Shown in pieces: positions 1-15,810 of a stretch of 16,094 bases of DNA; within the stretch, counting starts at the first letter, position 1; each line of letters begins with the position of its first letter. The position numbers and the translations under genes are program-made. The stretch lies in UHGV virus genome UHGV-0121456; one strand, given 5' to 3'. The DNA comes from a virus. The notes beneath the pieces are model-generated. The model ran no database searches, was not told the origin of the DNA, and saw only the letters and a program-made list of their open reading frames with translations.

Positions 1-298
1 CGCGCGTTGTTTCCGGTATATCGACTTTGATGTACGGGTTAATTTGTCTGGCGACCGTGGCAAGGTCTTTATTCAGGAGGGCTTTGCATTCTGCTTCGGT
101 ATACGTTTTACCGGGAATGATGTCTTTTCCGGTGTGTCCGTGACATACAGTCCATACACCAACGATATCTTTATATGGTATGTAGCTGACACCTTCCAGA
201 CCATCGTTACCACTTGGGCCAGTGATTAACACTGATGCTATAGCAATTGCTCCGCCACCAATAGCAGCAGCAACGGCTTTTCGTAATGATGGAGGCAT
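1..298 (-). CDS. R: SAR (signal-anchor-release) endolysin, phage 21 R-like lysozyme; 3' end truncated by the window edge
   Basis: Minus-strand translation from ATG at 298..296 gives [59 protein letters not shown]..., a Gly/Ala-rich SAR N-terminus followed by a lysozyme-like motif. Its start overlaps the holin stop (TAATG). Not in the ORF track because it has no stop inside the window. Confidence 0.85.
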
Positions 299-513
299 TA
301 TTCACCTCTCGCAGCCTTGCGCTTATCTTCTTTAATCTTGAAATAAAGGTTTGTCAGGTACGTCAGCAGGCCAAATACCAAGCTACCCAGCACACCTATT
401 GCTGCCCACTGTGAGGGCGTGACTTTATCGAGCAGCTGTAAAAACCAGTACCCGGCACTACCTGCTGAGGTGCCATAGGCGACACCCGTTGTTAACTTAT
501 CCATGGATTTCAT
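298..513 (-). CDS. S: Class II holin (pinholin, phage 21 S-like) with dual-start motif
   Basis: 71 aa [71 protein letters not shown]: two transmembrane segments and a charged C-terminus. Met1 and Met4 give the antiholin/holin dual start. GAGGTG Shine-Dalgarno upstream of the ATG at 513..511. Confidence 0.85.
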
Positions 514-625
514 AACCCCACCTCGCAGACAAAGCGGGTGTAAATTGAGGGAATACTACGAAACGTAACAGACTCGGAGTCAGTGAATAACTCAGGTATT
601 GGGTTATCAGCTAATATCGAGACTC

Positions 626-658
626 AAAAAATGGAAAAACCCGCTCGACGGCGGGTTT
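626..658 (-). terminator. Rho-independent terminator on the minus strand, tR'-like, upstream of the lysis cassette
   Basis: Perfect 8 bp stem 637-644/651-658 (aaacccgc/gcgggttt) with a 6 nt loop. On the minus-strand RNA it is followed by UUUUUCCAUUUUUU (complement of 626-636). Confidence 0.6.
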
Positions 659-696
659 AAGCTGTGTGACGAAGTAACCACTCTTAACACATTACA

Positions 697-724
697 TGAT
701 AAAATGCGGACCGCGTTAGTAATA
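697..724 (+). promoter_or_regulatory. Candidate promoter for the moron gene (extended -10 TGaTAAAAT at 697-705, or TTAGTA/TAATAT elements at 716-724)
   Basis: AT-rich region 30-55 bp upstream of the ATG at 751 with sigma70-like -10 elements. No strong -35. Read by eye only. Confidence 0.3.
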
Positions 725-750
725 TTTTTCTCATATATTGGGTTCACTAC

Positions 751-1497
751 ATGCGACATAATTTTTCTAAAGACACTATAAAAAAATTAGCAGAGCGGGC
801 AGCATTCATTTGTTCAAACCCTTCATGCCCTAGATTGACCATTGGCCCATCAATTGATGGCAATAAATCAATCAAGACAGGAGTTGCTGCTCACATATGT
901 GCAGCATCTCCTGATGGCCCACGCTATGACATGTCACAATCAGAAACAGAAAGGAAGTCAATTAACAATGGCATATGGCTGTGTGCTACTTGTTCTGTAT
1001 TAATAGATAAGAATCAGGGGCTAGACTATCCGGCACCTGTATTAAGAAAATGGAAAAAAGATCATGAAAGCCTTATAAGCTCCTGTCTTGAAGGTTCGAT
1101 TAATATTACCTTCGATGCTTTGAAATATATTCAACAGCATGATGAAAGAAATCTGGCAAAAAAGATTATAAATGAATTGGATGATAAAGGGGCTTTGTTC
1201 GTAGAATATCATCTTGAAAACCCCTGTTTTGTTGCCGAATCACTCAAAGAGTTAAGAACATGTTTGACCTCTTTGCTTTCTCAAATCCCAGATGAATCAC
1301 CTCTATTTATCGTTTGCAAGTCAATTCGAGAAGCATGCCGTTATTATATGAACAACACTTCTAAAGACGCAGGGATTAAAGAGTTAGAATTTTCGTTGGG
1401 AGCTGTCAGAAAAATCGTAGGTATCAACGTTAAAAGAATATCAGAAACCTACGGGGTTAAACCTAGCCCACAATTATCTACCATAATGCCAGATTAA
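751..1497 (+). CDS. Reverse-oriented moron: 248 aa protein with an N-terminal HNH-like (beta-beta-alpha-metal/zinc-ribbon) motif and an uncharacterised C-terminal domain
   Basis: ATG at 751. Motif C-x4-C ... AAHICAASPDGPRY ... NNGIWLCATCS (CxxC followed by Ser where His is expected). Lower GC than the flanks. Opposite strand to Q and the lysis genes. Followed by its own hairpin. Confidence 0.6.
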   Translation: MRHNFSKDTIKKLAERAAFICSNPSCPRLTIGPSIDGNKSIKTGVAAHICAASPDGPRYDMSQSETERKSINNGIWLCATCSVLIDKNQGLDYPAPVLRKWKKDHESLISSCLEGSINITFDALKYIQQHDERNLAKKIINELDDKGALFVEYHLENPCFVAESLKELRTCLTSLLSQIPDESPLFIVCKSIREACRYYMNNTSKDAGIKELEFSLGAVRKIVGINVKRISETYGVKPSPQLSTIMPD

Positions 1498-1506
1498 ATC
1501 TGTTAC

Positions 1507-1550
1507 GCAGCAACAAAGTTAAACTCTATGTTGCTGCCTTAATTTTATTA
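1507..1550 (+). terminator. Candidate intrinsic terminator for the moron transcript
   Basis: Perfect 9 bp stem gcagcaaca/tgttgctgc (1507-1515/1529-1537) with a 13 nt loop, followed by cttaattttatta. It starts 10 bp after the moron stop. Confidence 0.45.
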
Positions 1551-1910
1551 CTCCATTTCTAAACGAATATCCAGCATCGAGAGACAACCATCTATAAACC
1601 CTTCAGCCAACTGTATCTCTATACGTATCAATTTCTCATCTTTTTTGTATGCTTTTGCTATCTTCCTTTTCGAGATGCCATACAGGTAATGAGCCACAAT
1701 CAGAGAGTGCTCATACGGTTTTCTCTTCTTAAGAAGAGCAAGACAACCTTCAATAATTAATGCATCACTATCTGAACAAGCCTGACGTGTTTTGCTTGTA
1801 TAGGGAAGAAGCCCTTTAAACCCAGCAGCTATAGGAGAATAGTCTACTCCAGAACTATCACTCGCCGCCCATGCTCCCCAACGCTCCAGAACCATCTGAA
1901 TATCACGCAT
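1548..1910 (-). CDS. Q: Late-gene antiterminator Q (Q21/QuuD-like family)
   Basis: Translation MRDIQMVLERWGAWAASDSSGVDYSPIAAGFKGLL... matches my recollection of E. coli QuuD. Probable start is ATG at 1910..1908 with GGAG 7 nt upstream; the ORF-track start at 1913 is a TTG. It sits immediately upstream of the lysis region. Confidence 0.8.
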   Translation of the reverse strand: MRDIQMVLERWGAWAASDSSGVDYSPIAAGFKGLLPYTSKTRQACSDSDALIIEGCLALLKKRKPYEHSLIVAHYLYGISKRKIAKAYKKDEKLIRIEIQLAEGFIDGCLSMLDIRLEME

Positions 1911-1927
1911 CAACTTTCTCCACCAAA

Positions 1928-2923
1928 TCAGGCCAACACACCAATCGCCAGCGCGCGATCGATAAAACGAAATATCAGCTCCAGCTGAGAGCCATACTTC
2001 TCTTCAAATGCCACGGTATCCGCATGCAGCTCGTCGTGATGCTTTCTGCACAAAGGCAACACAAAGAGGTCATGCGCTTTTGTACCCATTCCACCCTGAC
2101 CGTGGCCTATCAGGTGGTGGGGATCATCAGCAGGCTTTCCACAACATGCACACGGCTGTGTCTTAACCCAGCGCGTGTACTTTTCATTAACCCAGCGGCG
2201 GCGTTTTGGGCGTAACATAAAAGACTCCGGCGACTCCGGATCCACTTTCAGCGCCAGCACCTTTTTCGCTTTATCCTGGATGATGCTGGTGGCAGGAACC
2301 GAAGGCACAAGGTCACTTTCCCGGGTGACAGACGGCACAACAGGCTTCGGTAATCTCAGTGCCTTACGGGCTGCACTTTCCGGTAAGGCATCCGCCAGAT
2401 CATTACGAATCAGCCACCAGCACAGTTCCGGCATTGTCACAACGTGACTGTCATCAAAACCGAGATCCCGACGCACAACAGACAACACCCAGCGGGCACA
2501 GTTATCCGTTGCCATTGATTCCAGCCGTTCCGTGAACTGATCGCGCAACTGGTTATCGCAATGCCAGCACAGACGGATTGCGCCCGGCGCGTGTCGCATT
2601 GTTGTCATGTTCTCGCTGTGCCAGTCGGAATGAGGCCACTGGCAGCCTTTTTCACGAAGTAACCAGCTTTCAAGACATTCCACGCCACCAGCACGACGAA
2701 TCACTGCCTCATTGCGGAACACTGCCCGAACGGCAGGATCATCCGCCAGCGGTTGTGATGCCGCCGGAACGGCACCACTGGCGAAAGATGAATAACGTTC
2801 CGGCTCAGGCTCCAGCAGGACACGCCCCTGCATAAACAGGGGCATCAGCTCTGAACCTGGTCTGAACAATACGATCCCCATACGCGGGGCAATTTCAGGG
2901 GTCAGTAGTGCTCTCACGGTCAC
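1928..2923 (-). CDS. DUF968-family protein (YdfU-like) with a C-terminal HNH-like Cys/His cluster
   Basis: 331 aa; C-terminal CACCGKPADDPHHLIGHGQGGMGTKAHDLFVLPLCRKHHDELH. Nin-region position between KilA-N and Q. The track start is GTG; the exact start is uncertain. Confidence 0.7.
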   Translation of the reverse strand: MTVRALLTPEIAPRMGIVLFRPGSELMPLFMQGRVLLEPEPERYSSFASGAVPAASQPLADDPAVRAVFRNEAVIRRAGGVECLESWLLREKGCQWPHSDWHSENMTTMRHAPGAIRLCWHCDNQLRDQFTERLESMATDNCARWVLSVVRRDLGFDDSHVVTMPELCWWLIRNDLADALPESAARKALRLPKPVVPSVTRESDLVPSVPATSIIQDKAKKVLALKVDPESPESFMLRPKRRRWVNEKYTRWVKTQPCACCGKPADDPHHLIGHGQGGMGTKAHDLFVLPLCRKHHDELHADTVAFEEKYGSQLELIFRFIDRALAIGVLA

Positions 2924-12988: not shown

Positions 12989-14215
12989 ATGATTGATAAT
13001 GAAGTTAAAATTTTTGCAAAAGAAAAAGAAAAAATGCTGTGCAACAAACTTTCTTTTTACAGGGAGCATGCTCAATCGAGTGAAGATACAAGAAAAAGAA
13101 ACGAATTTGAACGAGACTATGCGCGTATTCTTTATTCCTCTTCGTTCCGCCGGTTACAGGGGAAAATGCAGCTCTTTGAAGTCGATCCTCAAAAATTTAA
13201 CCGTAATAGACTGACTCATAGCCTAGAAGTTGCCCAGATAGCCCGAAGCATCGCATCCGAACTAGAACTTGAACATCCTGTTGTAGCAGAACTGGCTGCA
13301 CTTGCTCACGATATTGGCAACCCTCCGTTTGGTCATTCCGGTGAAAAAAAGCTAAACGATATTGCTAATGATTTCGGCGGCTACGAAGGCAATGCACAGG
13401 CACTTAGAATACTCAGAAGTCTCGAGATAAAGCATCCAAATTGCCCCGGTCTCAACCTTACCCACCGTGCCATTCTCTCCGTCGTTAAATATCCTTATAA
13501 AAAGGAAAACGGCAGAAAAAAATATCTTTATAATGATGACTATAAATACTACACAGAATTGGTAAATAGATATGAATTAGATTTGCAGACTGGCGAGAAG
13601 ACCATTGATGCACAGATAATGGATCTGTCAGACGAAATTGCATATGCCGCGCATGACCTTGAAGATGCACTAAGCCGTAGCATGGTCAGTATTGAAGATA
13701 TTTTTTATGAGTTTGGGATATCCAAGTACAAAGACTCAATTGATTTATTAAATACAATCATTGAAAAATCTAAATATACAGCTTCGAGAGCATCAAGACT
13801 CAATTCATCTGAAGAGTTCGCCATAATATTCAGAAAGGAATTGACATCCAATATTGTTAATGCGCTTGTTAATGATATTACTGTTATTCAAAGTGAAAAT
13901 GGATTCAAGCAACTTGGATTTAGCACTACAAAAAATCTGTCTGCAGGCCTTAAAGATATCGTATTTAAAGTCATCATGCGAAAAAGAGATATTAAAAGTT
14001 ATGAGCACAAAGGAAACATTATCATCGAAGATTTATTTAATTTTTATAATTATAGAGATAACATAGAATTCATATCCCCTCAACTGTATAGAACGCTCCC
14101 AAATAAAATAGAGCCTATTTATCAAGAACTTAAAAAACGTGCAATTGTCGACTACATCTCTGGAATGATGGATACATTTGCCATCCGCGAGTGGGAAACG
14201 CATCACAAAAAATAA
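12989..14215 (+). CDS. dGTPase-family HD-domain deoxynucleoside triphosphate triphosphohydrolase (Dgt-like); candidate nucleotide-depletion defence gene
   Basis: 408 aa. Motifs RLTHSLEVAQIARSIA, HDIGNPPFGHSGE, YEGNAQALRIL, DLSDEIAYAAHDLEDAL, VDYISGMMDTFAIREW match E. coli Dgt signatures. ATG at 12989 with GAGAGG Shine-Dalgarno. Sits in a strongly AT-rich island between the xis-like gene and the integrase. Confidence 0.85.
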   Translation: MIDNEVKIFAKEKEKMLCNKLSFYREHAQSSEDTRKRNEFERDYARILYSSSFRRLQGKMQLFEVDPQKFNRNRLTHSLEVAQIARSIASELELEHPVVAELAALAHDIGNPPFGHSGEKKLNDIANDFGGYEGNAQALRILRSLEIKHPNCPGLNLTHRAILSVVKYPYKKENGRKKYLYNDDYKYYTELVNRYELDLQTGEKTIDAQIMDLSDEIAYAAHDLEDALSRSMVSIEDIFYEFGISKYKDSIDLLNTIIEKSKYTASRASRLNSSEEFAIIFRKELTSNIVNALVNDITVIQSENGFKQLGFSTTKNLSAGLKDIVFKVIMRKRDIKSYEHKGNIIIEDLFNFYNYRDNIEFISPQLYRTLPNKIEPIYQELKKRAIVDYISGMMDTFAIREWETHHKK

Positions 14216-14586: not shown

Positions 14587-15810
14587 TCAACTGGAATCTG
14601 AACTAGGACAAGTAACGAGCGATTCAACCCTCTCCCACCATACCTGGTAGGCTTTACGCTGTTCTTCTAGATAATCGCTCTTGTCATAAACCTGCCATAC
14701 CCCTGGCAGCTTATGACCAAGCATAATTTCTGCAATATGAGGCGCAGTAAGATCAGAAAAGTTTGTTCGTGCTGTTCGCCTCAAATCATGAAGAGACCAA
14801 TGAGGGAATTGATACCCCAAACGTCGCCATGCGAACTGCATTAAATTGTAAGGCAGCGACTGCAATGATGTCCGACCAACTGGCTCCCTGCTTCCTTCCT
14901 TAGTAAAAAGCATATCGGAACCGTTGTTCATAGAGATAACGTATTTTATAAGCTCTTCAACCGGTTCAATAATGGGCCGCTTTAGTGGTTCGCCTGTTAT
15001 CTCCCCTGTCTTATGTCGTTCTGGCGGTACAGTCCATACCTTATTAATGAAATCAAAATCGTCCACCCTGGCGGTAATTAGCTCTGAACTACGGCAGCCA
15101 AAATGCAGCAATAGTTTAATGAAGGCCCGGTATTTAGGAACCATTCGAGAACCATCGATCGCAGCATAAAGGATTTTAATTTCATCATGTGTCAGAAACC
15201 GTTTCTTCTGACCTTTACGGATATCCATATCTTTACCCGTGATATCCGACAGCGGGCGAGTTTCAATGAGCTTTCTCTTATACGCCCAGACATGGGCCTG
15301 CTTTGCGTTAATTAGTAATCGGTCTGCTATTGCTGGAGCCTTAGTGCTAAGAGGCTCCAGGACTTCTAACCAATCATGCAATGTAGCTGCATCGTGAGGG
15401 ATATTCCCGATTTTAGAGAACAGGTGCAACTCAAACGAGCGGAGTATCTGTTCAGAACCCTTTTTATTTTTTACACAATATGCTTCATACCAGGCACGGA
15501 TCACAGACTCTACCGTCATGGCTTCAGTAGCTTTTCGTTTTTCAGCCTGCTTGACCAATCGTGGATTACGGTTTGACTCGAGTTCACCACGGAGACGGAT
15601 AACTTCTTCTCTGGCCTCTTTTAATCCAGTTGCCGGGTAAGTTCCGATATCAAGACGCTCACCTTTCCCTGCCCATTGATAACGATATTGGAACACTACG
15701 CGACCTTTCGGTGATACTCTGACAGACAGACCATCACGATCGGATTTAACCAAAACCTTATCACGTTCCTTTCCAACGACTGAACGCAACCACGCATCAG
15801 ACAGCGCCAT
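14587..15810 (-). CDS. int: Tyrosine-type site-specific integrase (P4-like, with N-terminal arm-binding DUF4102-like domain)
   Basis: 407 aa. N-terminus MALSDAWLRSVVGKERDKVLVKSDRDGLSVRVSPKG...YRYQWAGKGERLDIGTYP. C-terminal catalytic signatures HDLRRTART and a terminal Tyr region. AGGTGA Shine-Dalgarno before ATG at 15810. Confidence 0.9.
   Translation of the reverse strand: MALSDAWLRSVVGKERDKVLVKSDRDGLSVRVSPKGRVVFQYRYQWAGKGERLDIGTYPATGLKEAREEVIRLRGELESNRNPRLVKQAEKRKATEAMTVESVIRAWYEAYCVKNKKGSEQILRSFELHLFSKIGNIPHDAATLHDWLEVLEPLSTKAPAIADRLLINAKQAHVWAYKRKLIETRPLSDITGKDMDIRKGQKKRFLTHDEIKILYAAIDGSRMVPKYRAFIKLLLHFGCRSSELITARVDDFDFINKVWTVPPERHKTGEITGEPLKRPIIEPVEELIKYVISMNNGSDMLFTKEGSREPVGRTSLQSLPYNLMQFAWRRLGYQFPHWSLHDLRRTARTNFSDLTAPHIAEIMLGHKLPGVWQVYDKSDYLEEQRKAYQVWWERVESLVTCPSSDSS

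Follow-up and report, generated by a model that had tools for sequence, protein, structure and literature searches.

What is the function of a gene that lies against the strand of all its neighbours, between the antiterminator gene Q and the lysis genes of a lambdoid prophage? This question is raised by the UHGV virus genome UHGV-0121456, a stretch of 16,094 nucleotides (nt) that is referred to here, at its full length, as the window. An open reading frame (ORF) at positions 751-1497 encodes 248 amino acids (aa) from an ATG start on the plus strand, convergent to Q and divergent from a P21-type holin gene, whereas Q, the holin and the other neighbouring genes are on the minus strand. An earlier note, written from the letters of this DNA without database searches, had described this arrangement correctly and had proposed an autonomous cargo gene with a plausible role in abortive infection or exclusion. 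The product is identical to WP_001406331.1, which carries the RefSeq label 'hypothetical protein' and, in newer records, 'DUF6650 family protein' (PGAP). Our analysis assigned to it an N-terminal HNH nuclease domain and a C-terminal DUF6650 domain. On balance we consider it probable that the gene encodes a self-contained anti-phage nuclease, acting in abortive infection or superinfection exclusion, and that it is exchangeable cargo of a lambdoid prophage.

Domain architecture of the HNH-DUF6650 protein

Residues 1-115 matched the PADLOC models for the CBASS 'Effector endonuclease' and SAVED_HNH (down to 4.8e-21) and for Shedu SduA. Among solved structures the HNH effector of SPARHA (9om4; 3e-13) was the best match, and the Cap5 structures 8ysq, 7rwk and 8fm1 were also recovered. 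All PADLOC and PDB matches end at about residue 115-130, and the Pfam model HNH_2 scores only 13 bits on the window protein. An alignment of 62 homologues from Proteobacteria, Bacteroidota, Cyanobacteria, Firmicutes and Acidobacteriota, with identities down to 41%, revealed C21, C26, H48, N73, C78, C81, D86 and N88 as invariant. The HNH motif read from the letters in the earlier note is thereby borne out in its catalytic and zinc residues, and D86 or N88 could serve as a catalytic metal ligand. Judged by its sequence, the N-terminal domain is a genuine HNH domain of the clade that serves as the killing module in defence effectors activated by a signal or by oligomerisation.

The HNH half also occurs alone (50-52% identity, residues 2-109), with another C-terminal domain, in genes of P2-like phages annotated as 'lysogenic conversion protein'; carriers are Enterobacteria phage P2-EC46 (AJ512680.1:2584-2913; H28) and Yersinia phage vB_YenM_31.17. 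These P2-like copies point further to a shuffling of the HNH module between different sensors on temperate phages.

The C-terminal part of about 140 residues, in which the earlier note had found no recognisable motif, proved to be a DUF6650 domain (PF20355). This assignment was made through homologues and profile-profile comparison. Alignment with hhalign of the profile of the HNH-fused family to 26 stand-alone DUF6650 proteins gave a probability of 99.8% and an E-value of 5e-30 over 128 columns, which correspond to residues 121-248 of the window protein. A word-index search with the C-terminal half gave only 5 matches, and an exhaustive phmmer search was needed; with residues 110-248 it detected 171 representative clusters, mostly stand-alone proteins of 120-200 aa. 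Sampled members of these clusters reached 38-59 bits on PF20355.3 (cut-off 27), and the precomputed PF20355.5 was present on all of the 120 homologues listed. A crude motif classification of the 150 best representative clusters showed 17 HNH-fused, 3 transmembrane (TM)-fused and 116 short stand-alone proteins. The residues that define DUF6650 are mostly kept in the window protein (E156, S164, R169, C196, R197, L216, G217, R220, G224 and P247, in its own numbering). In the AlphaFold2 (AF2) monomer model this domain is all-helical, with a predicted local distance difference test score (pLDDT) >90 over most of its length, and fold comparisons found no informative solved or viral fold relative of it. 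By these comparisons the C-terminal domain is a canonical DUF6650 domain, an assignment that we regard as solid, and in this protein it is a probable sensor or oligomerisation module.

Relation to Cap5, SPARHA, ThsG and DS-27

In Cap5, ligand-induced tetramerisation activates the HNH domain. Cap5, the HNH-SAVED effector of CBASS (7rwk, 8fm1/8fmf, 8ysq), has an HNH of the same clade and the same order of an N-terminal HNH and a C-terminal sensor, and its logic, in which ligand-driven oligomerisation switches on non-specific DNA cleavage, is presumed to be shared. The window protein differs in its sensor, a helical DUF6650 of about 130 aa instead of SAVED, in having no CD-NTase operon, and in its zinc motif, which reads C-x2-H-H or C-x2-H-G in Cap5 and C-x2-C-S/A in the window family. 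Membership in Cap5 was rejected, as the protein has no SAVED domain, its C-terminus is DUF6650 and no cyclase gene is nearby.

The SPARHA HNH-APAZ protein, the best solved sequence relative of the window HNH, is likewise switched on by higher-order assembly, its HNH being activated by filament formation (9om4; PMC12738770). SPARHA differs from the window protein by its short Argonaute partner, by an APAZ sensor with guide RNA and by the lack of DUF6650. The PADLOC check proposed in the earlier note succeeded for the CBASS and Shedu effector models, but the match to PDC-M68A was half-length only. It covers positions 1-130 of 253, the HNH half, and there is no conserved partner; membership in PDC-M68 was rejected, and PDC-M68 was not found in the literature.

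For DUF6650 itself, a December 2025 preprint named operons of TIR and DUF6650 genes type VI Thoeris and their effector ThsG. According to this preprint, the TIRs produce 2' cyclic ADP-ribose (2'cADPR) upon infection, and growth of system-bearing cells is arrested by 2'cADPR and not by other isomers. ThsG was modelled with AlphaFold 3 (AF3) as a homo-hexameric ring or tube with basic inter-protomer pockets; transmembrane helices are present on some ThsG, and the toxicity of ThsG proteins that have none was left unexplained. The main text of the preprint and parts of its tables contain no HNH-fused ThsG. ThsG and the window protein both have DUF6650 as their C-terminal domain, which is small and all-helical and has no solved fold relative. 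The conserved R169, R197 and R220 of the window protein would be compatible with basic pockets of the kind predicted for ThsG. Both genes are found on E. coli mobile elements, and in ThsG, too, DUF6650 can be fused to another module, the transmembrane helices. The window gene differs in having no adjacent ThsB/TIR gene and in carrying an N-terminal HNH in place of transmembrane helices or nothing. Its membership in type VI Thoeris was rejected; it has no TIR, and its neighbours are Q and the holin.

The validated system of E. coli ACN001 was recovered from IMG/VR by its TIR sequence. In this locus (L097:2225-3618) a TM-DUF6650 gene immediately precedes the TIR gene, and the pair has P2-like portal and terminase genes as its neighbours. 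The ACN001 ThsG is a 'hypothetical protein' in RefSeq and has no PF20355.3 match.

A second link to immunity comes from DefensePredictor (Science 2026, PMC13092281), which lists DUF6650 among the domains newly implicated in defence, via the validated DS-27. This 'SMEK' protein is a validated single-protein E. coli defence with a DUF6650-like C-terminal region (the authors' HHpred probability is 0.88), and it provides a precedent for a DUF6650 fusion that acts without a TIR partner. Its N-terminal domain is SMEK, in contrast to the HNH of the window protein, and a comparison of DS-27 with the window family revealed no detectable similarity. Table S10 of the same study gives WP_001406331.1 the label 'Predicted novel defense gene' (log-odds 8.58), and the protein was not validated there. 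The sole homology note given there is a partial similarity to type II HNH restriction endonucleases over about 35% of the protein, the HNH core only. Of these systems Cap5 would be the closest in action, a sensor-plus-HNH effector from which the window protein differs in its sensor, and the gene has already been flagged computationally by a published classifier.

The cargo slot next to Q and the family beyond the prophage

The DNA of the locus is 100% identical to E. coli 13P477T over window positions 600-1600 and 99.5% identical over 311-2000, and ORFs further along the window agree with the annotation of the 13P477T record. A blastn comparison with the prophage locus L116 showed that homology ends at window position 722 and restarts at 1557, which delimits a variable cassette between stretches of conserved phage DNA (Table 1). 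L116 has a similar Q (~89% nt identity over 500 bp, comprising Q and adjacent DUF968 sequence) and carries an SDH-family Clp-fold serine protease as cargo instead (L116:1292-2287). Further occupants of the same slot are a three-gene operon (L117:322-2480) and blc (L118:1990-2514), and the cargo is reverse-oriented in every prophage compared. The description of a reverse-oriented and probably autonomous cargo in the interval between Q and the lysis genes stands. The three-gene operon encodes hypothetical proteins, the third of which is a weak match to PADLOC PDC-S54 (7e-6). Both this operon and the SDH protease are uncharacterised candidates for further prophage defence cargo.

Table 1. Features of the cargo locus and its borders in the window (dot: no strand assigned)
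Feature	Position	Strand	Basis or remark
P21-type holin (essD-like), first lysis gene	298-513	-	PF04971, 2e-35
Conserved 94-bp block common to prophages with different cargo	629-722	-	comparison of prophages
Intrinsic terminator on the phage late strand	637-658	-	scan: 8-bp stem with 5 GC pairs, followed by TTCCATTTTT
Extended -10-like TGATAAAAT, sole promoter-like element upstream of the gene	697-705	+	by eye
Variable cargo cassette, bounded by conserved phage DNA	723-1556	.	blastn against L116
HNH-DUF6650 gene, 248 aa	751-1497	+	ORF list; ATG start
N-terminal Cys4 HNH nuclease domain, Cap5/SPARHA/Shedu type, residues 1-115	751-1095	+	profile and structure matches
C-terminal DUF6650 domain (PF20355), residues 121-248, all-helical	1111-1494	+	hhalign, homologue annotation, AF2
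Hairpin immediately past the stop codon, candidate terminator for the cargo gene	1507-1537	+	fold energy, shuffles
Antiterminator Q, convergent with the cargo gene	1548-1913	-	PF06530, 1.9e-52

On the lysis side the cassette is bordered by a block (629-722) that is ~90% conserved in prophages with four different cargos. Its identity to L116 is 91.5%, and a 59-bp segment is 90% identical between the prophage loci L005 and L116. The core of the block is invariant in five prophages with four different cargos and includes the palindrome GCGGACCGC at 706-714. The block contains the sole strong intrinsic terminator of the phage late strand (637-658), which folds at -12 kcal/mol; the scan also flagged 703-717 on the plus strand as terminator-like. 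The block is probably the pR'-tR' late promoter/terminator unit together with the Q-binding region of this Q family. From its conservation we infer that pR' lies within 659-722, and the cargo would then sit between Q and this presumed promoter.

Accessory cargo between Q and the lysis genes is also found in lambdoid morons such as stx, nmpC in DLP12 and blc, and ORF 751-1497 resembles these in being AT-rich and in having its own candidate terminator. The moron features at the locus comprise the terminator hairpin, the low guanine-cytosine (GC) content and the polymorphism of the cassette among related prophages. The stx genes lie downstream of pR'/tR' and are Q-dependent. In contrast to stx, the cassette described here is upstream of the block that bears the late-strand terminator, between this block and Q, and is antisense to phage transcription; the comparison with a Shiga-toxin-type insertion site made in the earlier note did not hold.

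The cargo gene stays linked to Q in alleles of 100, 97, 83, 60 and 56% identity (E. coli, Buttiauxella and IMG/VR contigs), and in the 60% allele the cargo stop codon is only 27 bp from the stop codon of Q. The arrangement is retained in nine of the 17 full-length viral loci, which answers the question of recurrence at the Q loci of other prophages. The holin module on the left is variable, with the P21-type holin here and a holin of the lambda family where the same cargo is carried elsewhere. Beyond Q the minus strand encodes a DUF968 protein, a KilA-N protein and RusA. The DUF968 protein, encoded just upstream of Q (1928-2923, minus strand), has a second, unrelated HNH-like C-terminus (Pfam HNHc_6 4.4e-6, with a weak match to a RecA-dependent nuclease); this putative nuclease is part of the conserved phage backbone that flanks the cargo locus.

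The GC content over 751-1500 is 0.35-0.40, compared with 0.45-0.48 on the left flank and 0.50-0.58 on the right, as expected from the earlier description, but the 3' half of Q is likewise AT-rich (0.37). The own transcription signals claimed for the gene were recovered in part. The hairpin downstream of the stop codon is real; it has a perfect 9-bp stem (1507-1515 / 1529-1537), folds at -15.2 kcal/mol (z -4.2 against shuffles) and is followed, on the plus strand only, by the U-rich tail CUUAAUUUUAUUA. The terminator scan passed over it because its loop is longer than 8 nt. For the promoter-like elements the outcome was poorer. Upstream of the gene we found by eye only the extended -10-like TGATAAAAT, which is 45 nt upstream of the ATG, was missed by the consensus scan and is only partly conserved in other prophages.

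A search for relatives revealed 335 homologues across several phyla, full-length at 41-95% identity. They are spread over bacterial chromosomes and plasmids with unrelated flanks. The full-length gene is present in 24 of 5,426 complete E. coli genomes and in none of 50,697 sequenced phage genomes. An all-versus-all BLASTP comparison of the ORFs within 4 kb at 27 loci of full-length relatives showed no neighbour common to more than two loci, and Pfam analysis of 86 flanking ORFs of relatives found no family in more than two. With three type VI TIRs as queries, tblastn gave no match in the 16-kb window, nor in the loci of relatives retrieved by that stage. Across the 27 loci, neither a methylase nor an antitoxin accompanies the gene. 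The gene has no conserved partner and is a solo gene.

In other genomes, relatives were often encountered among defence genes. On the K. pneumoniae plasmid pKPN5 (IncR; L096:119-4774) a 35%-identical homologue lies immediately downstream of pifC-pifA (PifA 868 bits) and is followed by a gene for a 380-aa hypothetical protein, a locus that may be a small plasmid defence island. Flanking ORFs elsewhere match SduA, DrmC/DrmD (DISARM), LmuA/LmuC (Lamassu), type I, II and IIG restriction-modification systems, PD-T4-1, PDC-S46 and PDC-S03, and the Sodalis copy lies beside an IS110 element and ArdC/CbtA mobile-element genes. At the end of the window that bears the integrase gene (14587-15810, minus strand), and next to this gene, there is a dGTPase-type defence gene (12989-14215, plus strand; PADLOC PDLC02374, 349 bits; 'dGTP triphosphohydrolase family protein' in RefSeq). 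Together with the HNH-DUF6650 gene, the element therefore has at least two cargo sites with defence-like genes.

Stand-alone DUF6650 genes showed contexts of another kind. Repeatedly (L093:4001-5850, L094:2959-4430) the stop codon of such a gene overlaps the start codon of a tyrosine recombinase gene that follows it, and the protein P0233 resembles an integrase with a C-terminal DUF6650-like tail. This suggests that DUF6650 is tied to small integrative elements, a link beyond the Thoeris model. On a metagenomic contig (L091:4001-4486) a 2-oxoacid dehydrogenase operon contains a stand-alone DUF6650 gene between its E2 and E3 genes, an odd context that does not look like defence.

Weighing a role in phage defence

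A role in defence or abortive infection, which the earlier note had considered plausible, remains the best reading after these comparisons, on the basis of the effector-type HNH, the DUF6650 domain, the defence neighbours in other genomes and the machine-learning prediction by DefensePredictor. In this reading the lysogen would express the protein independently of late transcription, and DUF6650 would act as both sensor and assembly switch. Binding of an infection cue, which might be a 2'cADPR-like nucleotide, another ligand or a phage product, would drive or rearrange oligomers, and these would bring the HNH domains into an active arrangement, as in Cap5 tetramers or SPARHA filaments. Indiscriminate DNA cleavage by the activated HNH domains would then block replication of the phage and sacrifice the host cell. 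A cADPR-like cue made in trans is possible, without support from co-occurrence. It may be speculated that early read-through from Q, antisense to the convergent cargo, silences the gene during the prophage's own lytic growth.

Several observations weigh against this reading. The literature searched contained no experimental test of this protein or of any HNH-DUF6650 fusion. The sigma-70 consensus scan found no promoter upstream of ORF 751-1497, nor on either strand between Q and the holin. In the HNH domain, Ser82, which follows the CxxC motif, occupies the canonical third HNH position, and confidence in the AF2 model is lowest at the active-site loop (pLDDT <50 at residues 40-47 and 51-53). 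In the C-terminal domain, the local PF20355.3 scan and NCBIfam gave no DUF6650 match on the window protein itself, and the 'RR' dyad of stand-alone DUF6650 proteins (LEDRRAL) reads 'KG' in the HNH-fused clade. The validated E. coli ThsG aligned to the window family with an E-value of 0.2 and to canonical DUF6650 with 0.027, values that are not significant although the motif register looks right. Because the validated ThsG is too diverged to align significantly, its specificity for 2'cADPR cannot be transferred to the window protein. Finally, the six sampled contexts of canonical stand-alone DUF6650 genes contained no TIR neighbour recognisable by Pfam or PADLOC, and the role of DUF6650 may be broader than Thoeris signalling.

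The kinship with ThsG raises the alternative of an orphan Thoeris-type effector that works in trans, as a receptor for 2'cADPR, or a related TIR product, from a ThsB/TIR enzyme whose gene lies at another place in the cell or on a different mobile element. The prophage would thus supply an existing signalling system with a nuclease arm or 'eavesdrop' on it. DUF6650 is indeed the domain of the 2'cADPR-responsive ThsG, its conserved core of Arg, Cys and Glu is retained in the window protein, and in E. coli type VI Thoeris is found on P2-like elements, with one genome (NZ_CM141449.1) containing both genes. This genome is, however, the only one of the 24 carriers with the ACN001-type system, which is present in 42 of the 5,426 complete E. 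coli genomes; ~0.19 such carriers are expected by chance (P for at least one ~0.17), so there is no enrichment, in a comparison that concerns the ACN001-type system. The sampled loci also have no TIR within 6 kb and no recurrent neighbour, and the validated ThsG is only distantly related. We regard this alternative as unlikely. A similarly low probability is given to the idea that HNH-DUF6650 proteins are TIR-independent receptors, in which DUF6650 would be a general small-molecule sensor and ring-forming switch for a signal that is not made by the gene's own locus. Such a signal could come from TIR systems encoded at other loci, which would supply a cADPR isomer in trans, or it could be a metabolite that the invading phage itself produces.

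The homology note in DefensePredictor points to type II HNH restriction endonucleases, and the prophage encodes an N6-adenine methyltransferase of the Dam family. The gene might accordingly be a toxin or restriction-like nuclease that serves prophage maintenance or addiction, or a solitary type II-like HNH restriction endonuclease paired with this phage methyltransferase. The similarity to restriction endonucleases is limited to the HNH core, the surveyed loci show no linked methylase or antitoxin, and the fusion to DUF6650 points to regulated rather than sequence-specific activity; this explanation is distinctly improbable.

Even less probable is a catalytically dead, HNH-like zinc finger that binds without cutting and acts as a nucleotide sponge or regulator, for example as a 2'cADPR sponge that blunts Thoeris. 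Phage sponges for TIR products exist (for example Tad1 and Tad2). The low model confidence at the active-site loop fits with a dead domain, as does a Ser or Ala in place of the canonical last His, a substitution that the earlier note had emphasised. The serine is indeed present, but the matching position holds H in Cap5 7rwk and in SPARHA 9om4, G in Cap5 8ysq, and S or A throughout the HNH-DUF6650 family. Because the position varies in the solved Cap5 and SPARHA HNH domains and is S/A family-wide, Ser82 is a clade feature and not evidence of inactivation. The invariance across phyla of H48, N73, D86, N88 and the four cysteines would be hard to explain without catalysis, and a sponge has no need of a 115-residue nuclease domain.

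Free-standing phage HNH genes are often homing endonucleases. A selfish HNH gene that targets the Q-proximal site rather than serving immunity would account for the recurrence of alleles of 56-100% identity at the same site next to diverged Q genes, but it is highly improbable and was rejected, as the HNH is of the Cap5/SPARHA/Shedu effector clade and not of the phage homing clade (with its low HNH_2 score), the C-terminus is DUF6650 and not a DNA-binding module, unrelated cargo occupies the same slot, and the full-length gene is absent from the 50,697 sequenced phage genomes and widespread in non-phage contexts, on chromosomes and plasmids from many bacterial phyla, where its flanks are unrelated.

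If the gene were inactive or had no role in defence, the finding would shrink to an ordinary moron. Independently of its function, the analysis marks out a slot next to Q that holds reverse-oriented cargo in e14/DLP12-like lambdoid prophages. DUF6650 has been linked to immunity only since late 2025, and the work on type VI Thoeris left the mechanism of toxicity open. The natural fusion to a Cap5-type HNH, a killing module that is well understood, is widespread across phyla, is consistently found without a TIR partner and occurs in a prophage cargo slot. The fusion points to DUF6650 as a portable domain for sensing or assembly, and away from it as the toxic part. Were HNH-DUF6650 proteins TIR-independent receptors, the gene would act as a mobile 'plug-in' that equips signalling immunity with a nuclease arm. 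This would also bear on the toxicity of ThsG proteins without transmembrane helices, with DUF6650 as the sensor and the fused module as the toxic part. HNH-DUF6650 offers a tractable single-gene system for finding the ligand of DUF6650.

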